Of a stretch of 64,000 nt of DNA, positions 4,735 to 60,816 are shown piece by piece. Below the pieces are notes generated by a model. The model did no database searches and was not told the DNA's origin. It was given only the letters and a program-made list of their open reading frames with translations. Numbering within the stretch: the first letter of the stretch is position 1; each line of letters starts with the position of its first letter. The DNA is from an uncultured Bacteroidota bacterium (GTDB taxonomy: Bacteria; Bacteroidota; Ignavibacteria; Kryptoniales; JAKASW01), in the NCBI GenBank assembly GCA_963703365.1, contig OY969815.1, positions 2,888,577-2,952,576 on the forward strand, written 5' to 3'. A program made the translations under genes and the position numbers.

Positions 4735-5883
4735 ATGCGTACCATGATCGTCATCTTGATTGTCACAGCCATATTAGCAATATATGGTTTAGCTAACTAT
4801 TACATCTGTGTTCGTGGCATTCATGCACTTCGACCAATCGGATCCCTGCGTGTAGTGTACGTGGTTGCATTTATCTTTCTAGCAATCTCGTACGTTGCCT
4901 CGGTTTTTTTAGAACGCGCAGATATAATTGTGCTGGGCAAACCGCTCAGCTGGATCGGCTCATTTTGGCTCGGGGCGTTTGTCTATTTTCTTCTTATTGT
5001 CGCTGCGATTGATCTGCTCCGGTTCATCAACCGTTTCCTTCCGTTCTTTCCTTCTTTTATTATTTCGAATTCTGCGCGCTCCGCATTCGTGGCAGCAATC
5101 GGCACGTTTTCACTCGTAGCAATTATAGTTGTTTATGGTTTTGTTAATGCACACATCATCCGCGTGCGAACGTTCGATATCGCGATTCCGAAGGAAGCCG
5201 GCAAACGCAAAACATTAAACATCGTCATGGCGTCCGATATTCATCTCAGCTCCATCATAGGCCGGAGCCGCATTAGATCCATTGTCGAAAAAATAAATTC
5301 ACTTTCACCCGATCTTGTGCTTCTGCCGGGTGACATCGTGGATGGCGATCTTAACCCTGTTATTCATCAAAATCTCGGCGAATCGCTGCGTCAAATCTGT
5401 GCTCCGCTTGGAGTCTATGCAATCACAGGCAACCACGAATATATCGGTGGAGTGGAGAAGGCTTGCAAGTATATAACGGACCATGGTGTCAAGATGCTGC
5501 GGGACACGAGCGTCTTTGTAGATGAAAGTTTCTACATCGTGGGCCGTGAGGATCTTTCTGCAAGGAAGCGCCGTTCACTCAAAGGGGTCATGGAAGATGT
5601 TAATACAAAATATCCGGTTATCCTCATGGATCACCAACCTTTTCACCTTGAGGAAGCAGAAGCAAATGGGATTGATCTCCAGCTTTCCGGACATACGCAT
5701 CATGGACAGCTATGGCCATTCAATTATATCACAGATATGGTCTATGAGCTGGCGTACGGCTATTTGGTGAAAGGGACGACGCGCATTTACGTTTCGTCGG
5801 GCGTCGGCACATGGGGTCCTCCGTTACGAATCGCCGCGGATCCGGAGATTGTGAACGTGCGGATAAGCATAGACTCAAATTAG
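4735..5883 (+). CDS. Membrane-anchored calcineurin-like metallophosphoesterase
   Basis: The N-terminus has hydrophobic TM segments. Phosphoesterase motifs follow: SDIHL, PGDIVDG, GNHE, GHTHHGQ. Confidence 0.85.
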   Translation: MRTMIVILIVTAILAIYGLANYYICVRGIHALRPIGSLRVVYVVAFIFLAISYVASVFLERADIIVLGKPLSWIGSFWLGAFVYFLLIVAAIDLLRFINRFLPFFPSFIISNSARSAFVAAIGTFSLVAIIVVYGFVNAHIIRVRTFDIAIPKEAGKRKTLNIVMASDIHLSSIIGRSRIRSIVEKINSLSPDLVLLPGDIVDGDLNPVIHQNLGESLRQICAPLGVYAITGNHEYIGGVEKACKYITDHGVKMLRDTSVFVDESFYIVGREDLSARKRRSLKGVMEDVNTKYPVILMDHQPFHLEEAEANGIDLQLSGHTHHGQLWPFNYITDMVYELAYGYLVKGTTRIYVSSGVGTWGPPLRIAADPEIVNVRISIDSN

Positions 5884-5915
5884 TTCATAGCTCATGGTTT
5901 TTAGCTGACAGCTTT
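5881..5915. repeat. Degenerate tandem heptamer array (TAGCTNN)n
   Basis: TAGTTCA TAGCTCA TGGTTTT TAGCTGA CAGCTTT. The first TAG is the stop codon of the metallophosphoesterase gene. Confidence 0.7.
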
Positions 5916-5934: not shown

Positions 5935-6633
5935 CTATTTCAACATCAACATCTTCTTCACCTTGCTCCAATTGTCGGCGCTTATTCTGTAGAAATAAAC
6001 ACCGGATGAGACAATGGTGCTATTTTTATTTATGCCGTTCCACGTTAGCTCAGTATAACCTGCAGGATAATCTGCATCCGCAACTTGTGCCACCTCTCGA
6101 CCCACGATATCGTAGATACTGAGTTTCACATGAGATGCTTTCGGAAGATCAAATGCTATCTTCGTTGATGGATTAAACGGATTAGGAAAGTTATTGTAAA
6201 GCTTATAATCTGTTGGTGCTGCAACTTCGACCGTTATATCTTTTGTCCATTTTTGACCATCTGATGTGCTTATCGTCGCCGTTAATGTCGTATCCTTTCC
6301 AATCGGTGCCTTCTTGTCTACGGAAAATGTGAACTCTGCGTCTCCTGTAGCGTTGGCTGCAATGCTTTTAATGAGCACAGTGTTTTGCGCCAGAGGCGCA
6401 TCCGCCTCTGGCGGAGATTTGAAGTCGAGCCATGTCGGAAGGTGATTGAATGTTACAGAGACATTCTTTGCTTCGAGGCTGGAAGTATTTTGAATATTCA
6501 GGGAAATCGTGTTGCCAGTCGACGCGAACGGTATTTCCCAAACTTGTCCGGTAACGTTCGTCGAAGCGACCTTCGCAGGTTGACCAAATGTGCTAACGGA
6601 AATTGCTAACAATAGGATGACAACGTATTTCAT
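5935..6633 (-). CDS. Secreted protein with T9SS (Por-type) C-terminal sorting domain
   Basis: It has a signal peptide (MKYVVILLLAISVSTFGQ). The C-terminus FPNPFNPSTKIAFDLP...SGVYFYRI is typical of Por_Secre_tail domains. The ORF contains copy 1 of the 26-nt palindrome, read as ADAPLAQ. Confidence 0.7.
   Translation of the reverse strand: MKYVVILLLAISVSTFGQPAKVASTNVTGQVWEIPFASTGNTISLNIQNTSSLEAKNVSVTFNHLPTWLDFKSPPEADAPLAQNTVLIKSIAANATGDAEFTFSVDKKAPIGKDTTLTATISTSDGQKWTKDITVEVAAPTDYKLYNNFPNPFNPSTKIAFDLPKASHVKLSIYDIVGREVAQVADADYPAGYTELTWNGINKNSTIVSSGVYFYRISADNWSKVKKMLMLK
6387..6412 (+). repeat. 26-nt palindromic element, copy 1 (inside ORF 5935-6633)
   Basis: GCGCCAGAGGCGCATCCGCCTCTGGC. The stem GCCAGAGGC/GCCTCTGGC is 9 bp with a 6-nt loop. 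Confidence 0.8.
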
Positions 6634-11288: not shown

Positions 11289-11353
11289 CGCACAACCCTC
11301 TTTTATGTTGATTTATCTTGTTAAACTAAGTCAACTGAACCATAGGCTCATCT

Positions 11354-11379
11354 GCGCTGAAGGCGCATCAGCCTCTGGC
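11354..11379 (+). repeat. 26-nt palindromic element, copy 2 (intergenic, degenerate left arm)
   Basis: GCGCTGAAGGCGCATCAGCCTCTGGC, upstream of the minus-strand 998-aa gene. Confidence 0.7.
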
Positions 11380-11626
11380 CGAAGCCTAAGGCTGAAAAAA
11401 CCACCTTAATATTGGTGCTTGGGAAGCTCTCTTTTTACAATAACATAAGAAGGAATGAATGTCAATAGGAACACACAAAAATGTTTGTCCACGTGAACTC
11501 CATCACACAGGGAACTTTTTGCTCGAAAGTCGGAAACACATTAAAAGATTCGTTGCATGTAGTCGGCATAAAATCTAAAAAAGGGAAAAGCGGAAGGACA
11601 ACCCTAAACAACCCAGCGCTCACAAT

Positions 11627-11668
11627 TAGCTATGATCTGATTACTTATTCAGCTTCCAGCTTCAGATT
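11627..11668. repeat. Weak heptamer-periodic array
   Basis: TAGCTAT GATCTGA TTACTTA TTCAGCT TCCAGCT TCAGATT. Only some units match the family. Confidence 0.35.
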
Positions 11669-11724: not shown

Positions 11725-12213
11725 ATGCTTATGTTTCAACAGACCATCGACGCATCTAAGGTAATACAGCTCATGGTCGCGCCGGCAGTGATGATTAGCG
11801 CGTGCGGGCTTCTAATCCTAGGTGCGAACAATAAATATTCAAATGTCCTGAACAGGATACGTCTCATCAACGACGAGAAGCGCCGCCTTGTCATAAGAAC
11901 GGCGGATCATAAAGCTACACCGGAGGAAGACCTTCGTCTCGAGAGCACCGTGCGACAATTGAATCATCTCCGCATTCGCGCAAAAATGGTGAGAAATTCA
12001 GTTATGAGCTACACAATCGGTGCAGCACTTTTCGTGATCAGTTCGCTTCTGATAGGGCTCGCGCTGTTTCAAGGATTTGTCGAGATACATTACGTCTCGA
12101 CTGCAGTATTTCTACTCGGGATGATAATGGTATTTGTCGGTGTCATATTCGGGTTACTCGAATCGAAAAAAGGCTATGAGATTGTTCAGCTTGAAATAAG
12201 TGCGGAAGAATAA
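11725..12213 (+). CDS. DUF2721-like small membrane protein
   Basis: The N-terminal segment QLMVAPAVMISACGLLILGANNKYSNVLNRIRLIN and two C-terminal TM helices match my recollection of the DUF2721 architecture. Confidence 0.55.
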   Translation: MLMFQQTIDASKVIQLMVAPAVMISACGLLILGANNKYSNVLNRIRLINDEKRRLVIRTADHKATPEEDLRLESTVRQLNHLRIRAKMVRNSVMSYTIGAALFVISSLLIGLALFQGFVEIHYVSTAVFLLGMIMVFVGVIFGLLESKKGYEIVQLEISAEE

Positions 12214-16818: not shown

Positions 16819-17631
16819 ATGTCACAGTACATACACGGAACCAGCTCCGAAGAGCAGCAACGCCTTACTCTCCTAAATACTGTTCTTCTCAACGAAGCAT
16901 GCCTGAAAGAGCTGTCGCTTCTCGGCGGAGAAAGAATTCTCGATGTAGGAAGCGGATTAGGTCAATTCTCACGGGCGATGGCGAGAAAGTCGAAGACGAC
17001 CGTCCTCGGCATAGAAAGAAGCGAAGAGCAAATCGCCGAGGCGTTGCGTCAGGCGAAGAAAGATCGGGAGGAAGAGCTGGTGGAGTTTCGCAAAGGCGAC
17101 GCAAGGCAGCTTCCGCTGCGGGAGGAGGAGTGGGGAAGATTTGACGTTGCATACGCGCGATTTGTTCTCGAACATGTTCCTGATCCATTGAACGTGGTGA
17201 AGCAGATGGTACGGGCAGTCAAGAAAGGAGGACGAGTCGTTCTCGCAGATGACGATCATGACGTCCTTCGCCTGTACCCTGAAATACCGGAGTTTGCGGA
17301 TTTGTGGAGCGCATATATGCAAACTTACTCTGCACTCGGCAACGATCCGGTTGTCGGAAGAAAGCTCGTTTCCCTTCTGCACGAATCCGACGCGGTGCCG
17401 GTCCGCAACACATGGATCTTTTTCGGAAGCTGCTCCGGTGGTAAGCATTTCGATATCTACGTCGATAACTTGATCGGAGTCGTTGAAGGAGCAAAAGAGC
17501 AGATAGTGCGGCAAGGGCTGGTCGAAGAGAAAAGATTTGATCGGGTAATAGCGTCCTTTCGGAGTTGGCATAAACAACCCGACGCAACATTATGGTACGC
17601 CGTCTCCTGGGCGGAAGGGATAAAACGCTGA
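16819..17631 (+). CDS. Class I SAM-dependent methyltransferase
   Basis: Motif I ILDVGSGLGQF, followed by the acidic loop and the FDVAYARFVLEHV region. Confidence 0.8.
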   Translation: MSQYIHGTSSEEQQRLTLLNTVLLNEACLKELSLLGGERILDVGSGLGQFSRAMARKSKTTVLGIERSEEQIAEALRQAKKDREEELVEFRKGDARQLPLREEEWGRFDVAYARFVLEHVPDPLNVVKQMVRAVKKGGRVVLADDDHDVLRLYPEIPEFADLWSAYMQTYSALGNDPVVGRKLVSLLHESDAVPVRNTWIFFGSCSGGKHFDIYVDNLIGVVEGAKEQIVRQGLVEEKRFDRVIASFRSWHKQPDATLWYAVSWAEGIKR

Positions 17632-17688
17632 GTGGGGGATTAGAACCGGAGCTTTTTCGTGAAACAGCGGCTGAGATTGCATCCCAAA

Positions 17689-17723
17689 AGCTATTAGTCA
17701 TTACCTATGAGCTATCAGCTAAA
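17689..17723. repeat. Tandem heptamer array, five units
   Basis: AGCTATT AGTCATT ACCTATG AGCTATC AGCTAAA. The complement reads TAGCTGA TAGCTCA TAGGTAA TGACTAA TAGCT. Confidence 0.7.
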
Positions 17724-17727
17724 TCCG

Positions 17728-17756
17728 TTGACATTATAACATGGGACGGCTATATT
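17728..17756 (+). promoter_or_regulatory. Sigma-70-type promoter candidate for the S41 peptidase gene
   Basis: TTGACA, a 17-nt spacer, then TATATT. It lies 65 nt upstream of the ATG at 17821 and directly follows a heptamer array. Confidence 0.55.
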
Positions 17757-17820
17757 TTTTCAAGATGATAAAGGGCTGTTTGGAATTATCGAAGACAGGA
17801 ATAATTGCAGATCGGAAAAC

Positions 17821-18873
17821 ATGAGGCAGAAAAAACTCCTCGTTAAACTTTTATTCCTTTCTCTTTTGATTTTGTCTTCTTGTAAAAAGGAAGACAATCC
17901 GGGTGGGATCACACCGCCAGACAATGAGAATACACCGCAAAACAATTTCAATGTCCTCTGGAATGATTTCGATCAAAATTATCCGGTATTTGAATTGAAT
18001 GATATTAATTGGGACTCTGTCTATTACGTTTATTATCCGAAGATAACTTTAAATACCACCGATGCCGATCTTTTTAATATTTTAAAGTCATGCATCTTGA
18101 CATTGAAGGATGCTCACTCGGACATAATTTCAAATCAATTCGGAAGCTGTGATTATTACGATTTATTTGTTCAACAAAAACCGACTAATTTTATAAGCTG
18201 GAATCTGATCAGCTCAAAATATGTCCAGGTACTAAAATCTAATAACCAGCATTTGGCTTACGGGAAAGTGCTCAACGAGGACATAGGGTATTTCTTTATC
18301 GGGAGCTTTGACGACAGCGCAAGTAATTATTATCTGATAGATTCTCTTCTTACAGTATTTCAAAATTCAAAGGGGATAATAATAGATGTAAGACAAAATG
18401 GCGGCGGCAATGAGACGTACGCCCAGATTGTGGCAAGCAGGTTGACAAATACATCTGTGATTTATCGATATTACAGAGAAAGAAATGGCCCGAAGCATTC
18501 CGACCTAACCGGTTACTTTCCGGTAGTTTTGGTTCCTGGCGGGCCGATCAAGTACACAAAGACGGTCGTATTGCTCACCAGCCGGCGAACATTCAGTGCT
18601 GCCGAGGATTTTACTTTAATGTTGAAGAGCTTGCCGAACGTAATTCATATCGGCGATACGACATTCGGAGGTGTCGCAACAAATCCGATCACTAAAACCC
18701 TGCCGAATGGTTGGACATACCGTATGGCAAGAGCAATTGAATGTGACAACAATGAAGTTCCGATAAAGAACGGAATTGTCCCGCAGATTCCGGTTCAGAT
18801 TAGTAAAGCCGATTCAATTCAGGGCGTCGATAGGATTCTTGAAGAAGCCATAAATAAAATAAATGGAAACTGA
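17821..18873 (+). CDS. S41-family (tail-specific/tricorn-core-like) peptidase lipoprotein
   Basis: Lipobox LILSSC; IIDVRQNGGGN; TSRRTFSAAEDF, which is the S41 catalytic Ser context. Confidence 0.75.
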   Translation: MRQKKLLVKLLFLSLLILSSCKKEDNPGGITPPDNENTPQNNFNVLWNDFDQNYPVFELNDINWDSVYYVYYPKITLNTTDADLFNILKSCILTLKDAHSDIISNQFGSCDYYDLFVQQKPTNFISWNLISSKYVQVLKSNNQHLAYGKVLNEDIGYFFIGSFDDSASNYYLIDSLLTVFQNSKGIIIDVRQNGGGNETYAQIVASRLTNTSVIYRYYRERNGPKHSDLTGYFPVVLVPGGPIKYTKTVVLLTSRRTFSAAEDFTLMLKSLPNVIHIGDTTFGGVATNPITKTLPNGWTYRMARAIECDNNEVPIKNGIVPQIPVQISKADSIQGVDRILEEAINKINGN

Positions 18874-18958
18874 ATTTCTCATTGCGACATTCTCAAACCG
18901 TGAGGGCAGGGAAAAGTTTTCATACAACCGATGGAATTCAGAAAAGATAAGCCACGAA

Positions 18959-18986
18959 AGCTATCAGCCATGAGCTAATAGCTAAC
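18959..18986. repeat. Tandem heptamer array, four units
   Basis: AGCTATC AGCCATG AGCTAAT AGCTAAC. Confidence 0.7.
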
Positions 18987-18991
18987 TCTTC

Positions 18992-19020
18992 TTGATATTA
19001 CAAGATGGAGCGGCTATATT
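18992..19020 (+). promoter_or_regulatory. Sigma-70-type promoter candidate for the ImmA-XRE/DUF4411 operon (paralogue of 17728-17756)
   Basis: TTGATA, a 17-nt spacer, then TATATT. The spacer is 13/17 identical to the copy at 17734-17750. Confidence 0.55.
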
Positions 19021-19201
19021 CATGTGAGATGACTAACCGCCCACGGCTTAGGCAGGACGGGATCCTCCGGAAGGGCGATCGGAGATCATCGAAAGGAAAG
19101 GTACGATTGCAAGATCAGGAGATGTTGCGGCAGGAAGTAGTTTACACAATTACCATAGACCAACAAAACAAACTTAATTCTTATTATCTTTAAGACACAA
19201 A

Positions 19202-20380
19202 ATGGCGGACAAAGCAAACATAACACCAAACGTGCTTAAATGGGCGAGAGAGTCAGCAAGAATAAGCGAAGAAATTGCGGCCTCTAAGGTTTCTGTATCT
19301 GTTGATAAACTTAAAGAATGGGAAAGGGGTACAAGCCAGCCAACAATAAGGCAGGCTCAAACACTTGCAAAGGCTTATAAGCGTCCATTCGCATTATTCT
19401 TCCTTCCTGAAATCCCAAGAGACTTTCAACCACTTCAAGACTTCAGAAAGAAGGATTCAAAGGCATTAGGGACGGGTTCTATTTTTATCATTCGTGAAAT
19501 CCAACAGAAACAAGCTTGGATAAGTGAAGTAGACGAAGAAAACGGCGAAGAAAAAATACCTTTTGTTGGCCAATTCTCAATTAGGGATAATCCATTAGCA
19601 GTAGCGAACGATATATTGAATGCACTCGGTGTTGTCCCTTCACATTACACGACTGATAATCCAATAAGAGAATGGATTGATAAGGCAGAATCAAAAGGAG
19701 TCTTTATTTCACGAACAAGTTTTATTCATCCAAAATTAAAACTGGATAGCGGAGAGCTACAGGGTTTCGCTATTGCAGATCTCTATGCTCCGTTTGTATT
19801 TGTTAACTCGGAAGATTGGGATGCTCCACAACTATTTACTCTCGTTCATGAGCTTGCACATATCTGGATAGCTGAAACCGGTATTTCAAATGAAATTGAA
19901 CCTGAAATAAAAAACAGGGACAAGTTTCATCCTGTAGAATTGTTCTGTAATGAAGTAGCGGCTAATGCTCTTATACCCTCCGACATTATTAATGATCTGG
20001 AACGTGACATTTTCAAATCAGCTAAGGAAGTTTTTAAGGTATCTAAAAGTCTAGGAGTAAGTTCTTTTGCTTTTTTGGTAAGAGCCCTAAATCTCAACTT
20101 GATCTCCCATGATATTTACAAAAAACTGAAGCATGAAGCAGATATGGAGTACAGGGCATTTTTGAAAAGAGCAGAAGAAAAAGAAGCAAAGGGTAAAGAC
20201 AAAGAAAAGAAAGGTGGACCTAGTTACTATTTATTGCAACTAAACAAGAATAGCCGGCTATTTACTCGGACTGTTTTGGACGCCTTTCATGGCGGTTTCA
20301 TTGAACCGACACAAGCAAGTAGCCTGCTAAACGTTAAAGTAAATAAATTTTCGCTGTTGGAAGCGCAACTGCATAAATGA
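19202..20380 (+). CDS. XRE-type HTH fused to ImmA/IrrE (M78, DUF955) zinc metallopeptidase
   Basis: The N-terminal HTH is LKWARESARISEEIAASKVSVSVDKLKEWERGTSQPTIRQ. The HEXXH motif is VHELAHIW. A Lys/Glu-rich C-terminal helix follows. Confidence 0.8.
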   Translation: MADKANITPNVLKWARESARISEEIAASKVSVSVDKLKEWERGTSQPTIRQAQTLAKAYKRPFALFFLPEIPRDFQPLQDFRKKDSKALGTGSIFIIREIQQKQAWISEVDEENGEEKIPFVGQFSIRDNPLAVANDILNALGVVPSHYTTDNPIREWIDKAESKGVFISRTSFIHPKLKLDSGELQGFAIADLYAPFVFVNSEDWDAPQLFTLVHELAHIWIAETGISNEIEPEIKNRDKFHPVELFCNEVAANALIPSDIINDLERDIFKSAKEVFKVSKSLGVSSFAFLVRALNLNLISHDIYKKLKHEADMEYRAFLKRAEEKEAKGKDKEKKGGPSYYLLQLNKNSRLFTRTVLDAFHGGFIEPTQASSLLNVKVNKFSLLEAQLHK

Positions 20381-20883
20381 GTCCAACAGCAGACATCTAT
20401 TGCTTAGATGCCAATGTACTAATTCAAGCCTGGCAGAAATACTATTCACCTAAATTTTGTCCCGACTATTGGCAAGTTTTGGATGAGCTTGGAAACCGAG
20501 GAACCATATTCGTGCCTGAGATGGTACATGAAGAAATTGTCAGAACGGATGACGACTTGTCGAAATGGTTAATGAAAAGTAAGATTCCCGTTCGCAAAAT
20601 TGATGAGGCGGTTACCAAATGCTTACAAAGTATTTATTCTAAAAATTCAACACATGAACTCCTTGTTGATAACACAAAGTATAGATCGTTAGCGGATCCC
20701 TGGGTGATTGCCCATGCGATCAATGAGAGAGCAATTGTCGTGACAAAGGAAGAAAAAATAACAGCTTTAAATTCGAGCAAAATAAAAATACCGAATGTGT
20801 GTGACAACATGGGTGTACCCTGGATTAACGACTTTCAATTAATTGAGAAACTTGGCATTCGATTTAATTGTAAGCTGACATGA
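20377..20883 (+). CDS. DUF4411 (PIN-like nuclease fold) protein, putative toxin/effector partner of the ImmA-XRE protein
   Basis: YCLDANVLIQAW...YYSPKFCPDYW...LADPWVIAHA...VVTKEE...KIPNVCDNMGV matches the DUF4411 pattern as I remember it. It overlaps the upstream gene by 4 bp (ATGA). Confidence 0.7.
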   Translation: MSPTADIYCLDANVLIQAWQKYYSPKFCPDYWQVLDELGNRGTIFVPEMVHEEIVRTDDDLSKWLMKSKIPVRKIDEAVTKCLQSIYSKNSTHELLVDNTKYRSLADPWVIAHAINERAIVVTKEEKITALNSSKIKIPNVCDNMGVPWINDFQLIEKLGIRFNCKLT

Positions 20884-21036
20884 TTCATCTCGTTACTATG
20901 GTCTCCACGGTAACTAAAAGATTGGCGCTCCGCGCCAGCACAAATTAATGTGACACTATGATACATCTCCGACATGGTACACGACAGGTCAGGGATTGAC
21001 ACATGAACCGGAGACTCTTTAGTTTACTTCTTTTAG

Positions 21037-21813
21037 CTAAACGCCTAAGAGTTCATACGAGTAACCGACAGAAATTATCAAGTTGCCCGTGTGGCTCGTT
21101 CCATCCTGTGGATCTTTCTGGACATTTGTAAAGCCGTACAATCCGCGAACGTCTAAGGAGACACTCGCCCTGCTTGTGACAGAAACGGTGGCGCCGACCC
21201 CACCTGCAACGCCGAAATTCACTTTATTAATGCTGCTTGTCACATCGGTGCTTGCGTTGAAAGGTTGAGGAGGCACTGGTACTAATTCTCCACTGCTGTC
21301 GGGCATTTCGAGTACAGTTCCGTTCTTGTCAATGTAAATTGAACTCGTGCCGCTTGTATTCTCGGTTGCATTGAGGAGAAAACCGATGTAAGGCCCGGCA
21401 TTCACGTCAAACTTCAAGCAGCTCACGCCAAAAGTGTACTTCGCAAGCACAGGTATTTCGAGGTAGTTAAGAATAGACATATTTTTGAAATTTGCGTAAT
21501 AATACCCGCTAGGCGGCGACGGAAGGTCTGGCGGAAGGTTTGTTACAGGCTGGAGACCGTTTCGTTGCCCGCCTTGTCCGTCGAAATTAATTTCAGGTTC
21601 GATTGAAAAGTTATCTGTGATTGCGAACTCTGCTGTGATTCCGAAATTTGGCGCGAGCCGCGATGTGTAACCTTCGCTGACCTCGTTGTTCCCGCCGCTG
21701 AGATTCGGTACGCTTAGACCGCCTTGAATTCCGAGTCGTACTTGTGCGTGCGATGTTTGCAACATTAACAAGAATAACGATATAAGTACAAAGATTGGAA
21801 TCACTTTCTTCAC
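21037..21813 (-). CDS. Outer-membrane beta-barrel (porin/OmpA-like barrel family) protein
   Basis: It has a signal peptide ending SHAQ and alternating amphipathic beta-strands. The terminal aromatic residue is missing but the barrel end looks typical (VGYSYELLGV). Confidence 0.65.
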   Translation of the reverse strand: MKKVIPIFVLISLFLLMLQTSHAQVRLGIQGGLSVPNLSGGNNEVSEGYTSRLAPNFGITAEFAITDNFSIEPEINFDGQGGQRNGLQPVTNLPPDLPSPPSGYYYANFKNMSILNYLEIPVLAKYTFGVSCLKFDVNAGPYIGFLLNATENTSGTSSIYIDKNGTVLEMPDSSGELVPVPPQPFNASTDVTSSINKVNFGVAGGVGATVSVTSRASVSLDVRGLYGFTNVQKDPQDGTSHTGNLIISVGYSYELLGV

Positions 21814-24428: not shown

Positions 24429-24445
24429 TGTAATTTATTTCTTTT

Positions 24446-24471
24446 GCGCCCAAGGCGCATCAGCCTCTGGC
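24446..24471 (+). repeat. 26-nt palindromic element, copy 3 (fur stop / fur-feoA spacer)
   Basis: GCGCCCAAGGCGCATCAGCCTCTGGC. The fur stop codon (complement of 24460-24462) lies in the loop. Confidence 0.8.
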
Positions 24472-24975
24472 TGAATCACGTGCATCGTTCTTTTGACATT
24501 CCGAACACAATCCGAATATCTGGTGCGAATGACTTAGTAATCGAAACTTGAATCTCTTCGCAATGCTTTGCTGAGCGGCTTCAATATTTTTGTCGACGAA
24601 CTCGGTGATCTTTCCGCAATTGATGCACACAAGATGATCATGATGTGTGCGGCCGAATGCCTTTTCGTAACGTGAGCCATGATCTTTAAGTCTGGTTTTG
24701 AATACAAGCTTGCACTTTTCGAGAACGTCGAGCGTGTTATAAACTGTGGCCCTTGACACTTTGCTGCCGTCTTCTTTCAGCTTGAGGAACAATTCGTCTG
24801 CATCGAAATGACCGGTTGCCGTATTCACGGCATTAAGGACTTCAAAGCGTTCGGAAGTTACTCGGTAGCCTTCTTTTCGCAGAAATTCTTCTAACTTTTG
24901 TTTTGCTGTTTCCATCCCGCGGTCATATTTTAAATTAAGTCTAAGTAAGTTATCTGTATCAGGCATAGAGTTCAA
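24460..24975 (-). CDS. fur: Fur-family metalloregulator (start uncertain: TTG 24975, ATG 24966 or ATG 24915)
   Basis: Winged-helix segment RVTSERFEVL...SRATVYNTL; metal sites HHDHLVCINCG and CSEC. The stop codon lies in the loop of 26-nt palindrome copy 3. Confidence 0.85.
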   Translation of the reverse strand: MNSMPDTDNLLRLNLKYDRGMETAKQKLEEFLRKEGYRVTSERFEVLNAVNTATGHFDADELFLKLKEDGSKVSRATVYNTLDVLEKCKLVFKTRLKDHGSRYEKAFGRTHHDHLVCINCGKITEFVDKNIEAAQQSIAKRFKFRLLSHSHQIFGLCSECQKNDARDSARG

Positions 24976-27567: not shown

Positions 27568-28032
27568 TTACTTCTGCTGAGATAAATAGTTTTGTATTCC
27601 CATCTGTTTGATTTGATCCATTTGGGCTTCGAGCCAATCAACATCGTCCTCTTCGTCGAGCAGGTTAGATTTGAAAAGTTCGCGCGTGCCGTTATCTCCG
27701 GCCTCCGTGCACACCCGCATACTCTCATTGTAAGATTTCACTGCGGACTTCTCTGCCTCGTAATCTGATTTCAACTGGGCTTCAACGTCCTTGCCTATGT
27801 TGATCGGATTGAGCGTACTAACGTTGGGTTTGCCTTCAAGATAAAGAATACGTTCGATGATTTTTTCTGCGTGCTTCATCTCATGGATAGCTCTCTTCTC
27901 GATCGCTTCGTGAAGTCTGGCATATCCCCAATTCGCGCACATCTCAGCGTGGACAATGTATTGGTTGATAGCTGTGAGTTCCTCTGCCAGACGGAGGTTA
28001 AGTATTCGGATAATCTGTTTGTTGCCTTCCAT
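27568..28032 (-). CDS. bfr: Bacterioferritin
   Basis: Ferroxidase ligand pattern in LNLRLAEELTAINQYIVHAEMC...HEMKHAEKIIERILYLEG; 154 aa. Confidence 0.9.
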   Translation of the reverse strand: MEGNKQIIRILNLRLAEELTAINQYIVHAEMCANWGYARLHEAIEKRAIHEMKHAEKIIERILYLEGKPNVSTLNPINIGKDVEAQLKSDYEAEKSAVKSYNESMRVCTEAGDNGTRELFKSNLLDEEDDVDWLEAQMDQIKQMGIQNYLSQQK

Positions 28033-28224
28033 GATCTTCTCCTTTTTTGGGGTTACGGTTGCTATTTAAAATTATGTGGTCTCCGCTAAAATCGCAAGAT
28101 ATTCTAAATATGGTTGACGCCGACGCAGTTGTCATATTCGAAGGAAGGAACCCGCCAACCCCGGAATTACCGGGGCTCACGATTTCTTCAAACATGATAT
28201 ATTTCGATCTGGCCGCGGCCGCGA

Positions 28225-28286
28225 GTCAGCTAACTCCGGCGCCGATATGCCGCCCGGTGGAACTGGTTGTTAGCTGACCTTTTTTT
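28225..28286 (+). other. 10-bp perfect inverted repeat with T7 tail in the bfr-katG spacer
   Basis: GTCAGCTAAC ... (34 nt, GC-rich) ... GTTAGCTGAC C TTTTTTT. The T-tract is on the plus strand although both flanking genes are on the minus strand. Confidence 0.5.
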
Positions 28287-28323
28287 GCCGCCCTTTCAGA
28301 AGCCCTGAAAGACATCTATGCTA

Positions 28324-30528
<2,205 letters not shown>

Positions 30529-33121: not shown

Positions 33122-33146
33122 CGTCAGCTTGAGCCACTGGTTAGGC
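33122..33146 (-). repeat. attC-like half site (R''-L'' arm only) at the distal end of the cassette array
   Basis: The minus strand reads GCCTAAC-CAGTG-GCTCAAGC-TGACG, starting 7 nt after the stop of ORF 33154-33651. It is 24/25 identical to 33797-33821. I found no matching L'-R' arm towards rmuC. Confidence 0.55.
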
Positions 33147-33153
33147 GGTGCGT

Positions 33154-33671: not shown

Positions 33672-33821
33672 GCCTAATGGACTGGAGCTAAGCTGCGGCG
33701 ACGTGCAGCCAGTTCCACGTAGAATACACGCGCGAGAGACATTGCCAATTCCCTAAATTTTCTTTTGCGCGCGGCCAAATCATCGACGGCTGGTTCCGTC
33801 AGCTTGAGCGACTGGTTAGGC
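33672..33821 (-). repeat. attC-like site, about 150 nt (long class)
   Basis: Minus strand: GCCTAAC-CAGTC-GCTCAAGCTGACGG ... CCGCAGCTTAGCTCCAGTCC-ATTAGGC. The arms pair with two single-base bulges (G33806, T33799) on one arm. Confidence 0.6.
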
Positions 33822-33834
33822 AGTTTTTGCATAA

Positions 33835-35008: not shown

Positions 35009-35207
35009 CACCCAAAGAACCGGAGCTAAACTGCGTGCGGTAGAATATTGAATAACAATCTGCGGCGCCCCGTTACTCCGATATTATTTATTTGTTGAAT
35101 GGAAATTTACTTGGTGAAACTCGTAAATACAACTAAACTTTTGTGGCTCGTGAGGCTGTGAATTTTCGTACACCGCAATTTCAGTTAGCTCGAGCGATTA
35201 GTCAGGC
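35009..35207 (-). repeat. Decayed attC-like site, about 200 nt (long class)
   Basis: Minus strand: GCCTGAC-TAATC-GCTCGAGC... and a far arm ...CAGTTTAGCTCCGG... homologous to 33672-33700. The inner stem is retained (GAGCTAA(A)CTG / CAGTTAGCTC) and the R box is degraded. Confidence 0.45.
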
Positions 35208-35222
35208 ATTTACATGGCGAAC

Positions 35223-36578: not shown

Positions 36579-37406
36579 TCAGCCAACAACCGGGTTCATA
36601 TTGCGGCTACGATTCATATAAATGTCATCAAGAATTTCGCCGGCATCATTTGAAAAATTCGCGTCAAGCATGTCTTCAAAGCCGTTTTTAACAGCTTCTT
36701 TTATTTCAGTGAACTCTATCTTTTGCGCCAGAGGCGCATCAGCCTTTGGCTGACTTTTCAGAATTTCTGTCAACGTCGTGGTGTGCGAATCAAGATCACT
36801 CAACGTTTTCTGTTTGAGTTTGTCATCGACGTTAAGATATTTGACGATTTGCTTGTGAAAGTTTCCGATCAGGATCGAGCCATGCTGAAGTAAGACATCG
36901 CCGAATCTGTGTTGTGCACTGCCGACAAGTTTTTTGCCATGCCATTCGACTTCGTAAACAGCGGAAGTCGAGAAACACGGTATCGTAGAAGGATCATGGA
37001 ACAGCTTGCGGAAATCGGTCGAGCTTTGGGATAATTCCAAATCCGCAACAAGAGTTCGAAGGCCTTCGGCGAGAGCGTTACTGATTAAATTATAGCTATC
37101 GCGAATCGGCAATCCACCTGTGCTCATTACGACGGAATAAGTCAACTCATCCGCATGGAGAACAGCCTTTCCGCCGGTAGGCCGCTTCACGACTTCGATG
37201 CCATCTTGTCCGGCAAGCTCAACGATTATATCTGAGTCGTTTTGATTCTTGCCGAGCGAAATGCAGAAGGGTTTCCAGCGGTAAAACCTGAGAATGGGTG
37301 TGTGATCAATTTTGAATTCATCCACAAGCCGGAGGTCGAAGTCCATGTTAAACCTCCCGTCGTGCTCTCCCGTGTCGATGCAATTCCACAGCACAACATC
37401 GCTCAC
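36579..37406 (-). CDS. Biotin/lipoate A/B protein ligase family protein (LplA/LipM-like)
   Basis: RRPTGGKAVLHADELTYSVV and GKKLVGSAQHRFGDVLLQHGSILI. The ORF contains 26-nt palindrome copy 4, read as ADAPLAQ. Confidence 0.7.
   Translation of the reverse strand: MSDVVLWNCIDTGEHDGRFNMDFDLRLVDEFKIDHTPILRFYRWKPFCISLGKNQNDSDIIVELAGQDGIEVVKRPTGGKAVLHADELTYSVVMSTGGLPIRDSYNLISNALAEGLRTLVADLELSQSSTDFRKLFHDPSTIPCFSTSAVYEVEWHGKKLVGSAQHRFGDVLLQHGSILIGNFHKQIVKYLNVDDKLKQKTLSDLDSHTTTLTEILKSQPKADAPLAQKIEFTEIKEAVKNGFEDMLDANFSNDAGEILDDIYMNRSRNMNPVVG
36725..36750 (+). repeat. 26-nt palindromic element, copy 4 (inside lipoate-ligase-family ORF)
   Basis: GCGCCAGAGGCGCATCAGCCTTTGGC, preceded by TTTT as in copies 1 and 3. 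Confidence 0.8.
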
Positions 37407-39633: not shown

Positions 39634-39660
39634 TTATAAGATTACTCCTTTAAGTTGGCT

Positions 39661-39716
39661 CATAGCTATGGCTGAGGACGAAGAATAATATGCAATGAGC
39701 TACGATCTATGAACTA
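39661..39716. repeat. Tandem heptamer array at the lpxD 3' end
   Basis: The minus strand reads TAGTTCA TAGATCG TAGCTCA TTGCATA ... CAGCCAT AGCTATG. The third TAG is the lpxD stop. Confidence 0.65.
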
Positions 39717-45401: not shown

Positions 45402-45516
45402 ACTTTCCGCCTAAATTTCATGCCGTAAAATTTAAACCCGCATACAGTTAAAATCAAGGATTTGAACGGCTCGCCTTTGGCTTAACACACAAATTTTCCG
45501 TAAGTTACATAGGCAA

Positions 45517-45551
45517 TAGCTATTAGCGTTCAGCTTATGGCTGATAGGGAC
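45517..45551. repeat. Tandem heptamer array
   Basis: TAGCTAT TAGCGTT CAGCTTA TGGCTGA TAGGGAC, located between the uppS start and the stop of the SRPBCC gene. Confidence 0.65.
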
Positions 45552-45564
45552 AGTTAAAGCTAAT

Positions 45565-45966
45565 TTACTTCTTCTTTTTCTCTGCGAAATATTTCTTCAT
45601 CGGTAAAAAGTAAAACTCCTTCCAGCCATCTTTGTAGCGGGTACCGTGTCCCTCCGGTATATTGGAATGCTTGAGCGTCAACTTCGTACCGCCCGCGACT
45701 TCTTCGAGAGTCAGTTCAAGCTTTGAGTCTTCGCTGTCGTCGGGAAACTCGTTAGTGCGCCACGCTTGGACAATTAATTTGCCCGGTTTAAGCTCGAGAT
45801 TTTTGCCTTCTATATAATCGCCGAACACGTTGAAACGTCCTCCAACTTTCGGATCTATTACTGCTTTATCGCCTGTAAACCCCGTATGTTCTTTACTGCT
45901 CAGCCATGCTTTGTAAACTTCTTTTGGCTTCGCGGGCAGCGTGGTAGAGATTTTGAATGAGTCCAT
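45565..45966 (-). CDS. SRPBCC / AHSA1-like small protein
   Basis: I placed the start at the ATG at 45966, preceded by GAGGAGGG. The pattern PKEVYKAWL...GGRF...W is typical of Aha1/SRPBCC domains. Confidence 0.6.
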   Translation of the reverse strand: MDSFKISTTLPAKPKEVYKAWLSSKEHTGFTGDKAVIDPKVGGRFNVFGDYIEGKNLELKPGKLIVQAWRTNEFPDDSEDSKLELTLEEVAGGTKLTLKHSNIPEGHGTRYKDGWKEFYFLPMKKYFAEKKKK

Positions 45967-46025
45967 TATTTCCCTCCTCTTTTTTGGTAATATTATGCTC
46001 ATTGGTGAATGATGGTACAAAACAC

Positions 46026-56936: not shown

Positions 56937-58352
<1,416 letters not shown>

Positions 58353-58353
58353 A

Positions 58354-58416
58354 TAGCTATTACCCTTAGCCCGTCCATTCATAGTTGGGACGAGCTAGTA
58401 GCTGACTACTAAAAGA
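58354..58416. repeat. Tandem heptamer-periodic array (degenerate)
   Basis: TAGCTAT TACCCTT AGCCCGT CCATTCA TAGTTGG GACGAGC TAGTAGC TGACTAC TAAAAGA. It starts 1 nt after the TGA of the lyase gene. Confidence 0.5.
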
Positions 58417-58422
58417 AATGGG

Positions 58423-60816
58423 CTATTTCCATTGTACTAGTTTGAAAGTATCCGCATCTACACGGAAATATGCCCCACCGAGTGAGTCCGTCCTCCAAAT
58501 TTTAATGTTTTCTCTTTTCATTTCAGCGATGACTTCGGGCGAAGGATGCCCGAACTTATTGTTCGCTCCGACGGAGATCACCGCATAAGTCGGGTGAACC
58601 GTTTTTAGGAATTCGGGAGTCGAGCTCGTCTTGCTTCCATGGTGTCCGGCTTTATAAATGTCGGAGGCTAAAAATGCTCCGTAAATTTTTACCAGATCAT
58701 GTTCTACGGGCTTTTCAGCATCTCCCGCAAGAAGAAAATTTTCTTTGCCGATGCACACTTTCAAAACAATCGAACCGTCATTAAATCTCGTTTTGTAAGC
58801 AAATCCGCCTTCACCGACATACTTCCGATTCGGATGAACGACGTAAACTCGGTAAGTGGAGCCTGAATCCAAAATCATTCCTGCCCTGACATTCCTCGAT
58901 GGGATCTTAAAAGCAGCGACACACGCCATGGTCTTTATCCAAGTTTCGGATTGCGATGACTGCTCCGGATAGACGAAGTTGTCAACTTTTACGTTTCTTA
59001 TTACATACGCAGCGCCTCCCATATGGTCGATGTGCAAATGCGTTACTACGAAATAGTTAATCTCATCGATGCCGTTCCGTTCCAAGAAAGGAACAACAAC
59101 GCGCTCTCCCATATCGTAGCTTCTAAACTTTATTCCTGCATCGATGAGCATATTTTTCCCGTCGGGCATTTCGACAAAGATTGCATCTCCTTGTCCGACA
59201 TCCAACACAAAAAGTTTGGCTTCAGGTTTCGCTGTGAAAAGACTTGCGTAAAGAATGATATTCGCCCCAAGCAGCACACTAAAAATAATCTTTCCCATCA
59301 GCCCCTCCTTGCCGATCGAGGATCCACTTCGCGGGAATGCAGCCACTGAGAAAAGCCAGAGGAAATATAACAAAGCGAACGACCAGCCGATATCGGGGAT
59401 CACCACATGGCTGATCTTCATTGAACCAAGAAAAAAATTTATTTGGAGAATCGCAAACCCAAAAATCTGAGCAGCCGATGCGTAAAGAGAAGCAAGCAAC
59501 GACGAGAACAATCCGAAAAATAAAAAAATAAAGATCATGGACATGAAAATTCCTGCAAGCGGCACGACAAGAAAGTTTGCAAAAACGCTCACCAGAGAAA
59601 CCCGGTGAAAATAGTAAACGGTGAGCGGAATCGTTCCTAAGGTTGCAGCGATCGTCAAAAAGGCGACAGAGAGCGCCGAATTAAGCAACGGCTTCTCTTG
59701 CAGTGCCGGATACGATCTTCGAACCATTCCGAGAATTCGTTCGTGTAAAAGCGCAATCGACAACACAGCCGCGAAAGAGAGCTGGAATCCCGCCGTAAAC
59801 AATTGCGAAGGATTGAAAGTAAGTATGATGAGAGCGGCAAAGCCAAGCGAGTTCAATATCTGACTTTTCCTTTGCAGAAAGAATCCGAACAAAACCACCA
59901 GTGCCATGATGACGGCGCGAGTGATGCTCGGAGTCATGCCAACAACGAGTGCATACAAAATCAAAATTGGCGCAATGATGAAGAACCGAAACTTGCGCGG
60001 AATTCTCAAGAGCGATGCGACAGCCATGAGTATTCCCATAAAGAATCCAATATGCAAACCCGAAACGGCAAGAATATGGATGGTACCGGTGTTGATGAAT
60101 TGCTCGCTGACTTCTTTGTTTATTCCGATCCTTTCGCCGATCACCATGGCACGCGCAAGCTCCGCTTCGTCTCCTTTCATAAAAGTTTTTATTTCATTGC
60201 GCATGAAATTTCTTACAGGTTCCACAATGCTGCGTTGGAGGCTGAAACCGCTATCATGGTACACGGAAAGGACATCTGCTTCATTCGTCAGGTAAATTCT
60301 GCCGACGATTCCACTCAACAGGTAATACGATTTGAGATCGAATTCACCGGGATTCCTTGCTTCGGAAATGGCACCGGTTCTGCCTGTAAAGATGAGTCTG
60401 TCTCCGGTACGAAATTGGGCCTTGAATTTGGGTGTTACAATTAATTCGCCAGCGATTTTGTGCCATGACTTATCGAATCCGGAACATTCACCAAGAATAA
60501 CGGATGAGATGGCGGTATCCCTCGGAGATTCTTCTATCCTTCCGGCGAAACAGACGTAATTTGACAAGGGAGTGGATGACAACGATGCTATGTTTGTACT
60601 CATACTGAATGCGAACGCGCATACCAGCGCCGCATAAAACCCGACGGATATCAGTGTGGATATTCTTTCTCTCCGGAGAATTAGCCATACGGACATCATC
60701 ACGACAAGACATAGTCCAACGCTGAGGAAGAGAAGTTGATAATGCGGGAATTCCTTTCCAATAAAAATGCCCACTGCCGCGGATATTGCTGCTTTAAGTG
60801 CCGGGAAACGTTTCAC
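58423..60816 (-). CDS. comEC: DNA internalization competence protein ComEC/Rec2
   Basis: Polytopic competence domain (LAVSGLHIG) plus a C-terminal metallo-beta-lactamase domain (VTHLHIDHMGG). Confidence 0.85.
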   Translation of the reverse strand: MKRFPALKAAISAAVGIFIGKEFPHYQLLFLSVGLCLVVMMSVWLILRRERISTLISVGFYAALVCAFAFSMSTNIASLSSTPLSNYVCFAGRIEESPRDTAISSVILGECSGFDKSWHKIAGELIVTPKFKAQFRTGDRLIFTGRTGAISEARNPGEFDLKSYYLLSGIVGRIYLTNEADVLSVYHDSGFSLQRSIVEPVRNFMRNEIKTFMKGDEAELARAMVIGERIGINKEVSEQFINTGTIHILAVSGLHIGFFMGILMAVASLLRIPRKFRFFIIAPILILYALVVGMTPSITRAVIMALVVLFGFFLQRKSQILNSLGFAALIILTFNPSQLFTAGFQLSFAAVLSIALLHERILGMVRRSYPALQEKPLLNSALSVAFLTIAATLGTIPLTVYYFHRVSLVSVFANFLVVPLAGIFMSMIFIFLFFGLFSSLLASLYASAAQIFGFAILQINFFLGSMKISHVVIPDIGWSFALLYFLWLFSVAAFPRSGSSIGKEGLMGKIIFSVLLGANIILYASLFTAKPEAKLFVLDVGQGDAIFVEMPDGKNMLIDAGIKFRSYDMGERVVVPFLERNGIDEINYFVVTHLHIDHMGGAAYVIRNVKVDNFVYPEQSSQSETWIKTMACVAAFKIPSRNVRAGMILDSGSTYRVYVVHPNRKYVGEGGFAYKTRFNDGSIVLKVCIGKENFLLAGDAEKPVEHDLVKIYGAFLASDIYKAGHHGSKTSSTPEFLKTVHPTYAVISVGANNKFGHPSPEVIAEMKRENIKIWRTDSLGGAYFRVDADTFKLVQWK

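Follow-up and report, generated by a model that had tools for sequence, protein, structure and literature searches.

The question raised by this 64,000-nucleotide stretch of contig OY969815.1 (the window; GC content, ~45%), which derives from a member of Candidatus Kryptoniota, is why short, degenerate arrays of a TAGCT-based heptamer recur at its gene boundaries. An initial annotation of the sequence had described seven such arrays in non-coding gaps and had speculated that they act as translational insulators. The arrays belong to a genuine period-7, TAGCT-core family that is almost exclusively non-coding. The explanation that requires the fewest assumptions and accounts for the most observations is that they are a lineage-specific dispersed heptanucleotide repeat family of Candidatus Kryptoniota, akin to the STRR and TAACTGA repeats, a reading that we hold with about even confidence. 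If it is correct, a candidate phylum (Kryptoniota) and the unit TAGCTSA join the few lineages with their own dispersed heptamer family, and the old question of why certain heptamers have multiplied across many loci in certain genomes is sharpened.

Within the window, AGCT words were spaced 7, 14, and 21 nt apart 5, 3, and 5 times, respectively, compared to ~0.5 to 0.7 in dinucleotide shuffles. A phase-aware detector, in which matches to a TAGCTA core were summed over four units, identified six arrays at period 7 with a threshold of ≥16/24 and none or one at periods 6 and 8 to 12. Shuffled sequences yield ~1.6 arrays per window at this threshold; at 17/24 the window contained four arrays versus ~0.2 expected. 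The motif CCATGAGCTANNAGCTAA, with up to three mismatches allowed, gave six matches at five loci (0.41 expected). All 4,096 hexamer cores were ranked at periods 6 to 11 in 160 kb of Kryptoniota DNA, which removes the bias of choosing a motif after the fact. TAGCTA ranked first at period 7, with seven arrays and none at periods 6 and 8 to 11, and the next seven cores in the period-7 list were its phase shifts. A census of 336 kb of non-redundant Kryptoniota-like DNA, 9.7% of it intergenic, recovered 16 arrays from ~10 independent loci, and 15 of these arrays were non-coding (p ~9e-15). In the intergenic DNA alone, 12 arrays were observed versus 0.76 in shuffles. Thus, the family is more frequent than in shuffled intergenic sequence. 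It also extends beyond the window, as arrays are also present in related Kryptoniota genomes, in part at orthologous positions; these relatives, found via BamA, are metagenome-assembled genomes labelled Candidatus Kryptoniota or uncultured Bacteroidetes.

Self-identity at a lag of 7 nt, a motif-free measure for which each interval was compared with windows of the same length, was 0.71 for the array starting at 18959 (the best in the window), 0.64 for 17689 (top 0.01%), 0.57 for 5881 (top 0.17%), 0.54 for 45517, 0.49 for 11627 (top 0.6%), 0.47 for 39661, and 0.36 for the interval 58354-58416. Six of the seven intervals were in the top 0.6%; 58354-58416 was at the 6% level and not significant. 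A repeat finder independently recovered 5880-5906 (78% identity) and 45523-45547 (84%) as inverted copies of 18959-18985. Tandem Repeats Finder, proposed earlier as the means of detecting the family, reported no period-7 array at a minimum score of 30. The arrays are too degenerate for this program and are therefore not classical tandem repeats; in practical terms, such arrays escape Tandem Repeats Finder, yet a phase-aware core scan detects them.

The sole coding array in the census (L537 14598-14625) is a coding look-alike inside a Por_Secre_tail gene, which specifies a C-terminal domain of the type IX secretion system (T9SS); here ATC-AGC-TAT-CAG-CT encodes ISYQL. The ISYQL motif encoded by ATCAGCTATCAGCT corresponds to two heptamer units in the open orientation, and T9SS-rich genomes therefore carry many coding look-alikes, possibly seeds, of the repeat. 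A derivation of the arrays from relict coding sequence of T9SS C-terminal domains was rejected; it accounts for the match in L537 but not for the intergenic arrays.

Six of the seven intervals first described are upheld as periodic, and four of them are strong arrays. The array at 5881..5915 (forward strand; TAGTTCA TAGCTCA TGGTTTT TAGCTGA CAGCTTT; detector score, 17/24) lies between convergent genes for a metallophosphoesterase (4735..5883, +) and a T9SS-tail protein (5935..6633, −), with the metallophosphoesterase gene terminated by the first TAG of the array. The arrays at 17689..17723 and 18959..18986 are both on the reverse strand; on the forward strand they read AGCTATT AGTCATT ACCTATG AGCTATC AGCTAAA (19/24) and AGCTATC AGCCATG AGCTAAT AGCTAAC (20/24). 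The first of these is 57 nt past the stop codon of a SAM methyltransferase gene, with a −35 hexamer 4 nt farther on; the second is 85 nt past that of an S41 peptidase gene, with a −35 hexamer 5 nt farther on. The fourth, at 45517..45551 (forward strand; TAGCTAT TAGCGTT CAGCTTA TGGCTGA TAGGGAC; 18/24), is 13 nt past the stop codon of an AHSA1-like gene (45565..46020, −) and ~110 nt upstream of uppS (start, 45401).

The interval 39661-39716, previously drawn as one array, is really two inverted half-arrays with ~16 nt between them. The left half, on the lpxD side (39693..39716, reverse strand; sense reading TAGTTCA TAGATCG TAGCTCA; 16/24), has the lpxD stop codon as its first TAG. The right half, on the lpxC side (39656..39676, forward strand; TGGCTCA TAGCTAT GGCTGAG), is inverted relative to the left half and immediately precedes the lpxC/fabZ ribosome-binding site (AAGGAG), ~22 nt ahead of the start codon (39633). 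The 10-mer TAGTTCATAG starts both of the unlinked arrays 5881 and 39693, and in each the upstream gene terminates at the first TAG of the 10-mer. The array at 11627..11668 (no strand assigned; TAGCTAT GATCTGA TTACTTA TTCAGCT TCCAGCT TCAGATT), in the divergent spacer upstream of a DUF2721 gene (11725..12213), is decayed; it had been called weak, and in the window it falls under the detector threshold. The interval 58354-58416 does not hold up as drawn. Most of it is not repeat, and only ~58378-58419 scores (58378..58419, no strand assigned; GAGCTAG TAGCTGA CTACTAA; 16/24), as a borderline array between the convergent genes 56961..58352 (+) and 58423..60816 (−). The distances to stop codons in the initial annotation are correct, and its placement of the family mostly close to stop codons in non-coding gaps is borne out. 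Its typing of the units as TAGCTNN captured a real TAGCT core, but several of the units that it cited do not match TAGCTNN.

Near the 45517 array there is a conserved uppS promoter candidate (TTGATT-16-TTAAAT), with the array ~85 nt upstream of it as read from aligned sequences. Between the position of this array and the likely promoter, TTGCCTnTGTAACTnACGGAAAnTTTGTGTGTTAAGCC (45440-45516, reverse strand) is conserved across genera upstream of uppS (L002-L006).

Comparison with related genomes indicated how the arrays behave over time. At the lpxD/lpxC junction, arrays were found in the window, L003, L005, and L007, with a remnant in L002, and in each of these five spacers a loop separates a forward half-array from the reverse one that follows. 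The L003 units (TAGCTCA, TAGCTCA, TAGCTTA) include two that are identical and keep the TAGCT core exact in all three; the window units are decayed. The lpxD/lpxC spacer of L004 is 14 nt long and has no array. The orthologue of the 45517 array was present in the closest relative, L006; upstream of uppS in L002 to L005 there was no array, and the AHSA1 gene was also missing there. The 5881 array is not conserved in L535, which has an 88% identical phosphoesterase and the same convergent neighbour. The L535 spacer has kept its length and flanks, lost its periodicity, and retains a single AGCT. Orthologues of the weak 11627 array are better preserved (L484 1682-1709, 16/24; L535 16288-16322, 17/24), and near-identical copies of the 18959 array occur at L484 7723-7750 and L489 11492-11519.

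The unit-number comparison suggested in the initial annotation, made between these related genomes, revealed exact 7-nt indels at two loci. In alignments, L535 has exactly one more 7-nt unit at the 11627 locus than the window and L484, and the 17689 array differs from its L484 orthologue by a 7-nt indel. These orthologous arrays, indels, and losses across relatives show that the arrays persist as a class over long times, change size by whole units, and can each be dispensed with. At six of the seven independent co-directional loci, the array was nearer to the upstream stop codon than to the downstream start codon; the distance to the downstream start was 23 to 305 nt, and orientation was mixed.

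The anatomy of the unit was derived from 41 units of ten arrays aligned as AGCTAWN, a small and partly non-independent sample. The frequencies were A.85, G.85, C.98, T.73, A.90, and A/T.90 (37/41 units) at positions 1 to 6, and position 7 had no preference (0.04 bits). The way in which the arrays were detected inflates the core frequencies but affects the contrast of position 6 with position 7 less, as position 6 lies outside the detector core and position 7 was not enriched for the scored T. At the free position there was no preference for G, which would add G-U pairs. On the opposite strand, which reads TAGCTSA, conservation covers the non-palindromic hexamer ATAGCT, and a single free base completes the unit. 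The arrays consist of 3 to 5 units in strict 7-bp register, and those of the window have at most two identical adjacent units.

The comparison with STRR offered in the initial annotation is apt, and the TAACTGA direct repeats (MacGregor 2015, PMC4679880) are a still closer published analogue. These repeats occur as 169 sets of 2 to 6 copies in a Beggiatoa genome and are also found, in intergenic DNA, in Cyanobacteria and five Bacteroidetes (PMC4679880). Their forward strand has stop codons in all three frames and their reverse strand is open; they show 7-nt indels between strains, and their position and orientation vary by species, with those of Microcystis in mixed orientation and many lying between stop codons (PMC4679880). 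Their function is not known, translational regulation having been proposed, and no TAGCTGA direct repeats occur in the Beggiatoa genome (PMC4679880). Both families are dispersed intergenic heptamer tandems of particular lineages, and TAACTGA is one base from TAGCTGA, with the same stop-rich forward strand and open reverse strand (SVISYQL versus SAISYQL). Further likenesses are the 2 to 6 units found in most species, the 7-nt indels, and the varied orientation and position. However, the Kryptoniota unit is TAGCTSA/AGCTAWN, with G rather than A at position 3, its copies are degenerate rather than exact, and the host is different. The BOGUAY pattern, in which repeats are forward and a few nucleotides upstream of a start codon, is likewise not seen in the Kryptoniota arrays, with their mixed orientation and more distant starts.

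Like STRR, the Kryptoniota arrays are made of dispersed intergenic 7-bp tandem units. The units of STRR1, STRR2, and STRR3 are CCCCAGT, TTGGTCA, and CAACAGT, whereas those of Kryptoniota are TAGCT-based and belong to a different phylum; STRR arrays are also usually cleaner and longer. STRR are found in filamentous cyanobacteria, where they can form hairpins between co-transcribed genes (hupS-hupL), and their function is not known (PMC2670836); the lpxD/lpxC inverted pair may be a counterpart, its folding relative to shuffles differing between genomes. According to PMC4679880 (citing Mrazek 2007) and PMC4692102, heptanucleotide repeats are the commonest class of long simple sequence repeats in many prokaryotes. 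Long or phase-variable repeats of this kind share with the Kryptoniota arrays a period of 7, slippage-driven change in unit number, and an intergenic regulatory location. However, phase-variable repeats are perfect and long enough for frequent slippage, and the window arrays are invisible to Tandem Repeats Finder, with lag-7 identities of 0.47 to 0.71. Active phase variation of the window arrays is unlikely because they have at most two identical adjacent units and escape that program.

As members of such a repeat family, the arrays would arise and be resized by replication slippage or unit-level recombination and then decay by point mutation, which would explain why all copies in the window are degenerate. 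Survival would be limited to sites that tolerate insertions, namely, convergent spacers, the DNA next to gene 3′ ends, and positions before promoters. For most copies no function would be required, nor would they act as all-frame translational stops. Local secondary roles are likely where arrays have been co-opted, at the edge of a promoter-leader module (two arrays) and in an lpxD/lpxC intercistronic hairpin, both considered below.

Heptamer arrays of the same type are also present in viral contigs, where at least 120 matches to three TRGCTSA units were found, with clean arrays of up to 16 units among the matches listed. A naive expectation of ~14 would mark TRGCTSA as a widespread special family. 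However, this interpretation was rejected because matched controls gave 114 stretches (scrambled TRGTCSA) and 111 stretches (altered TYGCTWA), so that the enrichment is modest; the similar counts for scrambled controls indicate that heptamer tandem repeats of any sequence are common. A complete scan for four TRGCTSA units gave 55 stretches versus 37 to 38 control arrays of at least 4 units. Among the matches listed, de-duplication left 110 TRGCTSA arrays versus 45 and 71 for the controls, and homogeneous arrays made up 52% of the TRGCTSA set versus 76 to 88% in the other three sets, the A/G and C/G variants being intermixed. The context of the viral arrays resembles the Kryptoniota pattern. 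Among the matches listed, TRGCTSA arrays between co-directional genes showed no orientation bias (23 forward, 28 reverse), those in other spacers were convergent in 19 cases and divergent in 2 (pooled scrambled controls, 21 versus 8), and 29 were inside open reading frames (ORFs), on the open (opposite) strand. One viral contig, IMGVR_UViG_3300044798_000503 (47 kb; GC, 0.64; L032, L049, L083, L111, and L113), carries eight or more distinct TAGCTGA/TGGCTGA arrays, with inverted copies accompanying several of them, a genome-specific proliferation of these units outside Kryptoniota.

Several observations weigh against a repeat family shaped only by slippage and neutral decay. The constraint on position 6 next to a free position 7, as judged from the aligned units, would not be expected from neutral decay of a homogeneous array. 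The ~1.5- to 2.4-fold excess of viral TRGCTSA arrays over controls, together with their far greater heterogeneity, hints at constraint on the core. The lpxD/lpxC arrays persist across genomes in which LpxD is only 72 to 86% identical. In four copies of the promoter-leader module, the two promoter-proximal heptads (GAGCTAnnAGCTAA) are conserved like the −35 and −10 hexamers, and neighbouring segments vary. Slippage alone also does not explain why one heptamer occupies many loci of one lineage or why its core outlasts the seventh base, and the same gap exists for STRR and TAACTGA.

An alternative is that the arrays are heptad operators, in which each 7-bp unit of double-stranded DNA would bind one dimer of a small sequence-specific protein, adjacent dimers would cooperate, and the module arrays would regulate accessory or defence-like genes. 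MetJ, for example, binds tandem met-boxes as cooperative adjacent dimers. The strict register, the 6-nt core with one free base, and the 3 to 5 contiguous units in direct and inverted orientations are what such operators would have. The viral arrays, which are heterogeneous yet conserve the core, would fit as well. Another precedent is the omega/ParB-RHH system, in which 7 to 10 contiguous non-palindromic WATCACW heptads overlap promoters and bind one dimer per heptad in either orientation (PMC9499535). As at the omega sites (the pSM19035 parS sites/operators), Kryptoniota heptads are contiguous and direct or inverted, and those of 17689 and 18959 abut a −35 hexamer. However, their consensus is different, the units are fewer, most arrays are not at promoters, and the RHH protein of the omega system is known, so that the analogy is only mechanistic.

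The case for operators also draws on the module of which the 17689 and 18959 arrays form the 5′ ends in two copies. The array is followed, 4 to 5 nt on, by the promoter-like TTGAcATTACAAnATGGnaCGGCTATATT and by a leader that comprises AGATGAtTaACCGCCCACG, a variable hairpin, and AGGaCGGGATCCTCCGGAAGGGCG...GAATCATCGAAAgGAAAG...AGGAGG-ATG. Across copies, the conserved parts are the promoter, TTGAcATTACAAnATGGnaC..CTATATT, and a leader of ~100 nt (...ACCGCCCACG, hairpin, ...GGGATCCTCCGGAAGGGCG...GAATCATCGAAAgGAAAG...AGGAGG-ATG). Copies were located at 17724-17820 and 18987-19201 in the window, at L484 7751-7990, and at L489 10875-10902 and 11520-11823, with further copies, from metagenomes, at L529 4643-4992 and 10749-11098 and in L493 and L514. 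The two promoter candidates proposed for the window were confirmed. Copy 1 (17728..17820, forward strand) has TTGACA-17-TATATT at 17728-17756, an 11/12 match to the sigma-70 consensus, and a shortened leader (AGATGA...GGAATTATCGAAG) that extends to the S41 peptidase start at 17821. Copy 2 (18992..19201, forward strand) has TTGATA-17-TATATT at 18992-19020 (10/12) and a full-length leader (AGATGACTAACCGCCCACGG...GGGATCCTCCGGAAGGGCG...ATCATCGAAAGGAAAG), followed by an HTH_3/Peptidase_M78 gene (19202..20380) and a DUF4411 gene. Copy 1 and 18992-19032 form a direct repeat (D10) with 76% identity.

The arrays at 17689, 18959, L484 7715, L489 11484, and L493 and the remnant at L489 10848 all end 3 to 6 nt before a −35 hexamer, and the proximal two units are the ones conserved like the promoter elements. 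However, the module copies are homologous, so this spacing is not independent evidence for operators. Furthermore, the promoter and leader are kept in both L529 copies, which have no heptad or a single one; arrays thus often accompany the module promoter but can be dispensed with. The 5881 and 58378 arrays are between convergent genes and the 45517 array is well upstream of the uppS promoter candidate, the arrays are short and degenerate, and no candidate binding protein was identified. Near the viral arrays no small DNA-binding family recurred, and the only families recurring there were of sizes that would fit phage morphogenesis proteins. A heptad-operator role is rather unlikely overall, but it may apply at the module promoter. 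A broader version is more doubtful still: that a putative heptad-binding protein, by analogy with omega and MetJ, reads ATAGCT-N heptads, that array, promoter, and structured leader form a portable cassette before interchangeable accessory or defence genes, and that the other arrays and the phage TRGCTSA arrays would be further sites.

The module is a more interesting lead than the arrays themselves, as a portable promoter and leader in a hot spot of accessory genes. Homologous leaders were found in L484, L489, L493, L514, and L529 (two copies), and the genes behind the module elsewhere include one for a caspase-like C14 peptidase (L484) and, in L489, an ORF6N gene and a restriction-modification methylase gene. 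A small conserved hairpin in the leader, with one compensatory pair among six sequences, is suggestive only. The leader 19-mer at 19059-19077 of copy 2 is unique in the window, and a metagenome scan with it gave 44 matches, of which 4 were true module copies and 40 were chance matches in high-GC coding DNA. The leader had no Rfam match, with only noise at E values up to 10 across 17600-19300; Rfam at gathering thresholds and a tRNA scan gave no matches in the window as a whole. The conserved promoter and leader precede unrelated accessory genes and may constitute a new cis-regulatory 5′ untranslated region.

The surrounding region of the window (17632-21036), between the methyltransferase gene (16819..17631) and an outer membrane protein gene (21037..21813), is a variable accessory-gene hot spot. 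It holds the S41 peptidase, HTH_3-M78, and DUF4411 (PIN-like) genes in the window, is empty in L485/L486, and is occupied by a caspase-like peptidase in L484 and by a restriction-modification island in L489. Integron attC sites or cassette recombination were considered for this hot spot and set aside; the arrays are too short, there is no adjacent integrase, and arrays also occur between core genes.

A further alternative is that the arrays function as RNA, with transcribed arrays or inverted pairs folding into hairpins that would serve as stabilisers, processing sites, or terminators between cistrons or in 3′ untranslated regions, a role also suggested for STRR at hupS-hupL. The arrangement of forward half, loop, and reverse half at lpxD/lpxC in five genomes is consistent with this, as is the location of arrays near upstream stop codons and in convergent spacers. 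The lpxD/lpxC hairpin was better folded than shuffled sequence in L003 (z = −2.29), L007 (z = −2.38), and L002 (z = −2.13), but not in the window (z = 0.10) or L005 (z = 0.52). An idealised (TAGCTGA)6 folds at −18.4 kcal/mol, the same value as in Table 3 of PMC4679880, and the hairpins reported for STRR between co-transcribed genes (PMC2670836) are a precedent. However, the single arrays of the window were no better folded than shuffles (z −0.15 to −1.8), there were no U-tracts after the arrays, and a terminator scan was at background, with none at arrays. Arrays rich in TGG fold only as forward-strand RNA and would be predicted to be forward, yet four were forward and five reverse. The indifference of the free position to G is also not what folding would favour. 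An RNA-level role for the arrays in general is therefore improbable; an RNA-hairpin role is plausible only at the lpxD/lpxC inverted pair.

The proposal that the arrays are translational insulators, with stop codons in every frame on both strands halting ribosomes between genes, can be argued from ideal units. Of these, only TAGCTCA and TAGCTAT give arrays with a stop in each of the six frames. A comparable all-frame-stop property was noted for TAACTGA repeats (PMC4679880), and three forward arrays (5881, 39693, and that of L003) start precisely with the upstream gene's stop codon. However, an ORF that enters a forward array must end there, so that arrays would be found to start at stop codons whether or not they had a function. 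The actual sequences do not behave as the ideal units do. The numbers of frames with a stop on the forward and reverse strands were 2 and 2 for 5881, 2 and 3 for 17689, 2 and 2 for 18959, and 2 and 2 for 45517, and on the gene-sense strand none of these four strongest arrays has a stop in every frame. Units of the TAGCTGA and TGGCTGA types leave every reverse-strand frame open, and in most arrays the AGCTAT-type strand, rather than the stop-rich TAGCTSA strand, is the sense strand of the flanking genes. The same junctions are array-free in relatives (lpxD/lpxC in L004 and the 5881 spacer in L535). Frame analysis, orientation, and dispensability thus all contradict an insulator function, which we consider extremely unlikely, and arguments from all-frame stops are best tested on actual sequences rather than idealised units.

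Chance clustering of AGCT words in AT-rich intergenic DNA, over-read by eye, could draw on the silence of Tandem Repeats Finder, the units that do not match TAGCTNN, the detector background in shuffles at 16/24, and the interval 58354-58416, to which it still applies as drawn, but period specificity, the unbiased ranking of 4,096 cores, the excess over intergenic-only shuffles, the 78 to 84% identity between unlinked arrays by inverted-repeat detection, and the orthologous arrays in other genomes have already refuted it both for the family overall and for each of the four strong arrays, and it deserves almost no credence.

Other repeats were encountered in the window. A REP-like palindromic repeat, TTTTGCGCCAGAGGCGCATCAGCCTCTGGC, occurs in four copies with 75 to 100% identity (6381-6416, 11348-11383, 24440-24475, and 36719-36754), and its arms, GCCAGAGGC and GCCTCTGGC, can pair. 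A 28-nt repeat, CGTCAGCTTGAGCCACTGGTTAGGCGGT (68 to 100% identity), immediately follows the stop codon in each of three small genes on the reverse strand (33122-33149, 33797-33824, and 35183-35210) and may be a shared 3′-end element of a paralogous gene set. A spike in GC content at 28001-30000 (0.58 versus ~0.45 elsewhere) coincides with the ORF at 28324..30504 on the reverse strand.

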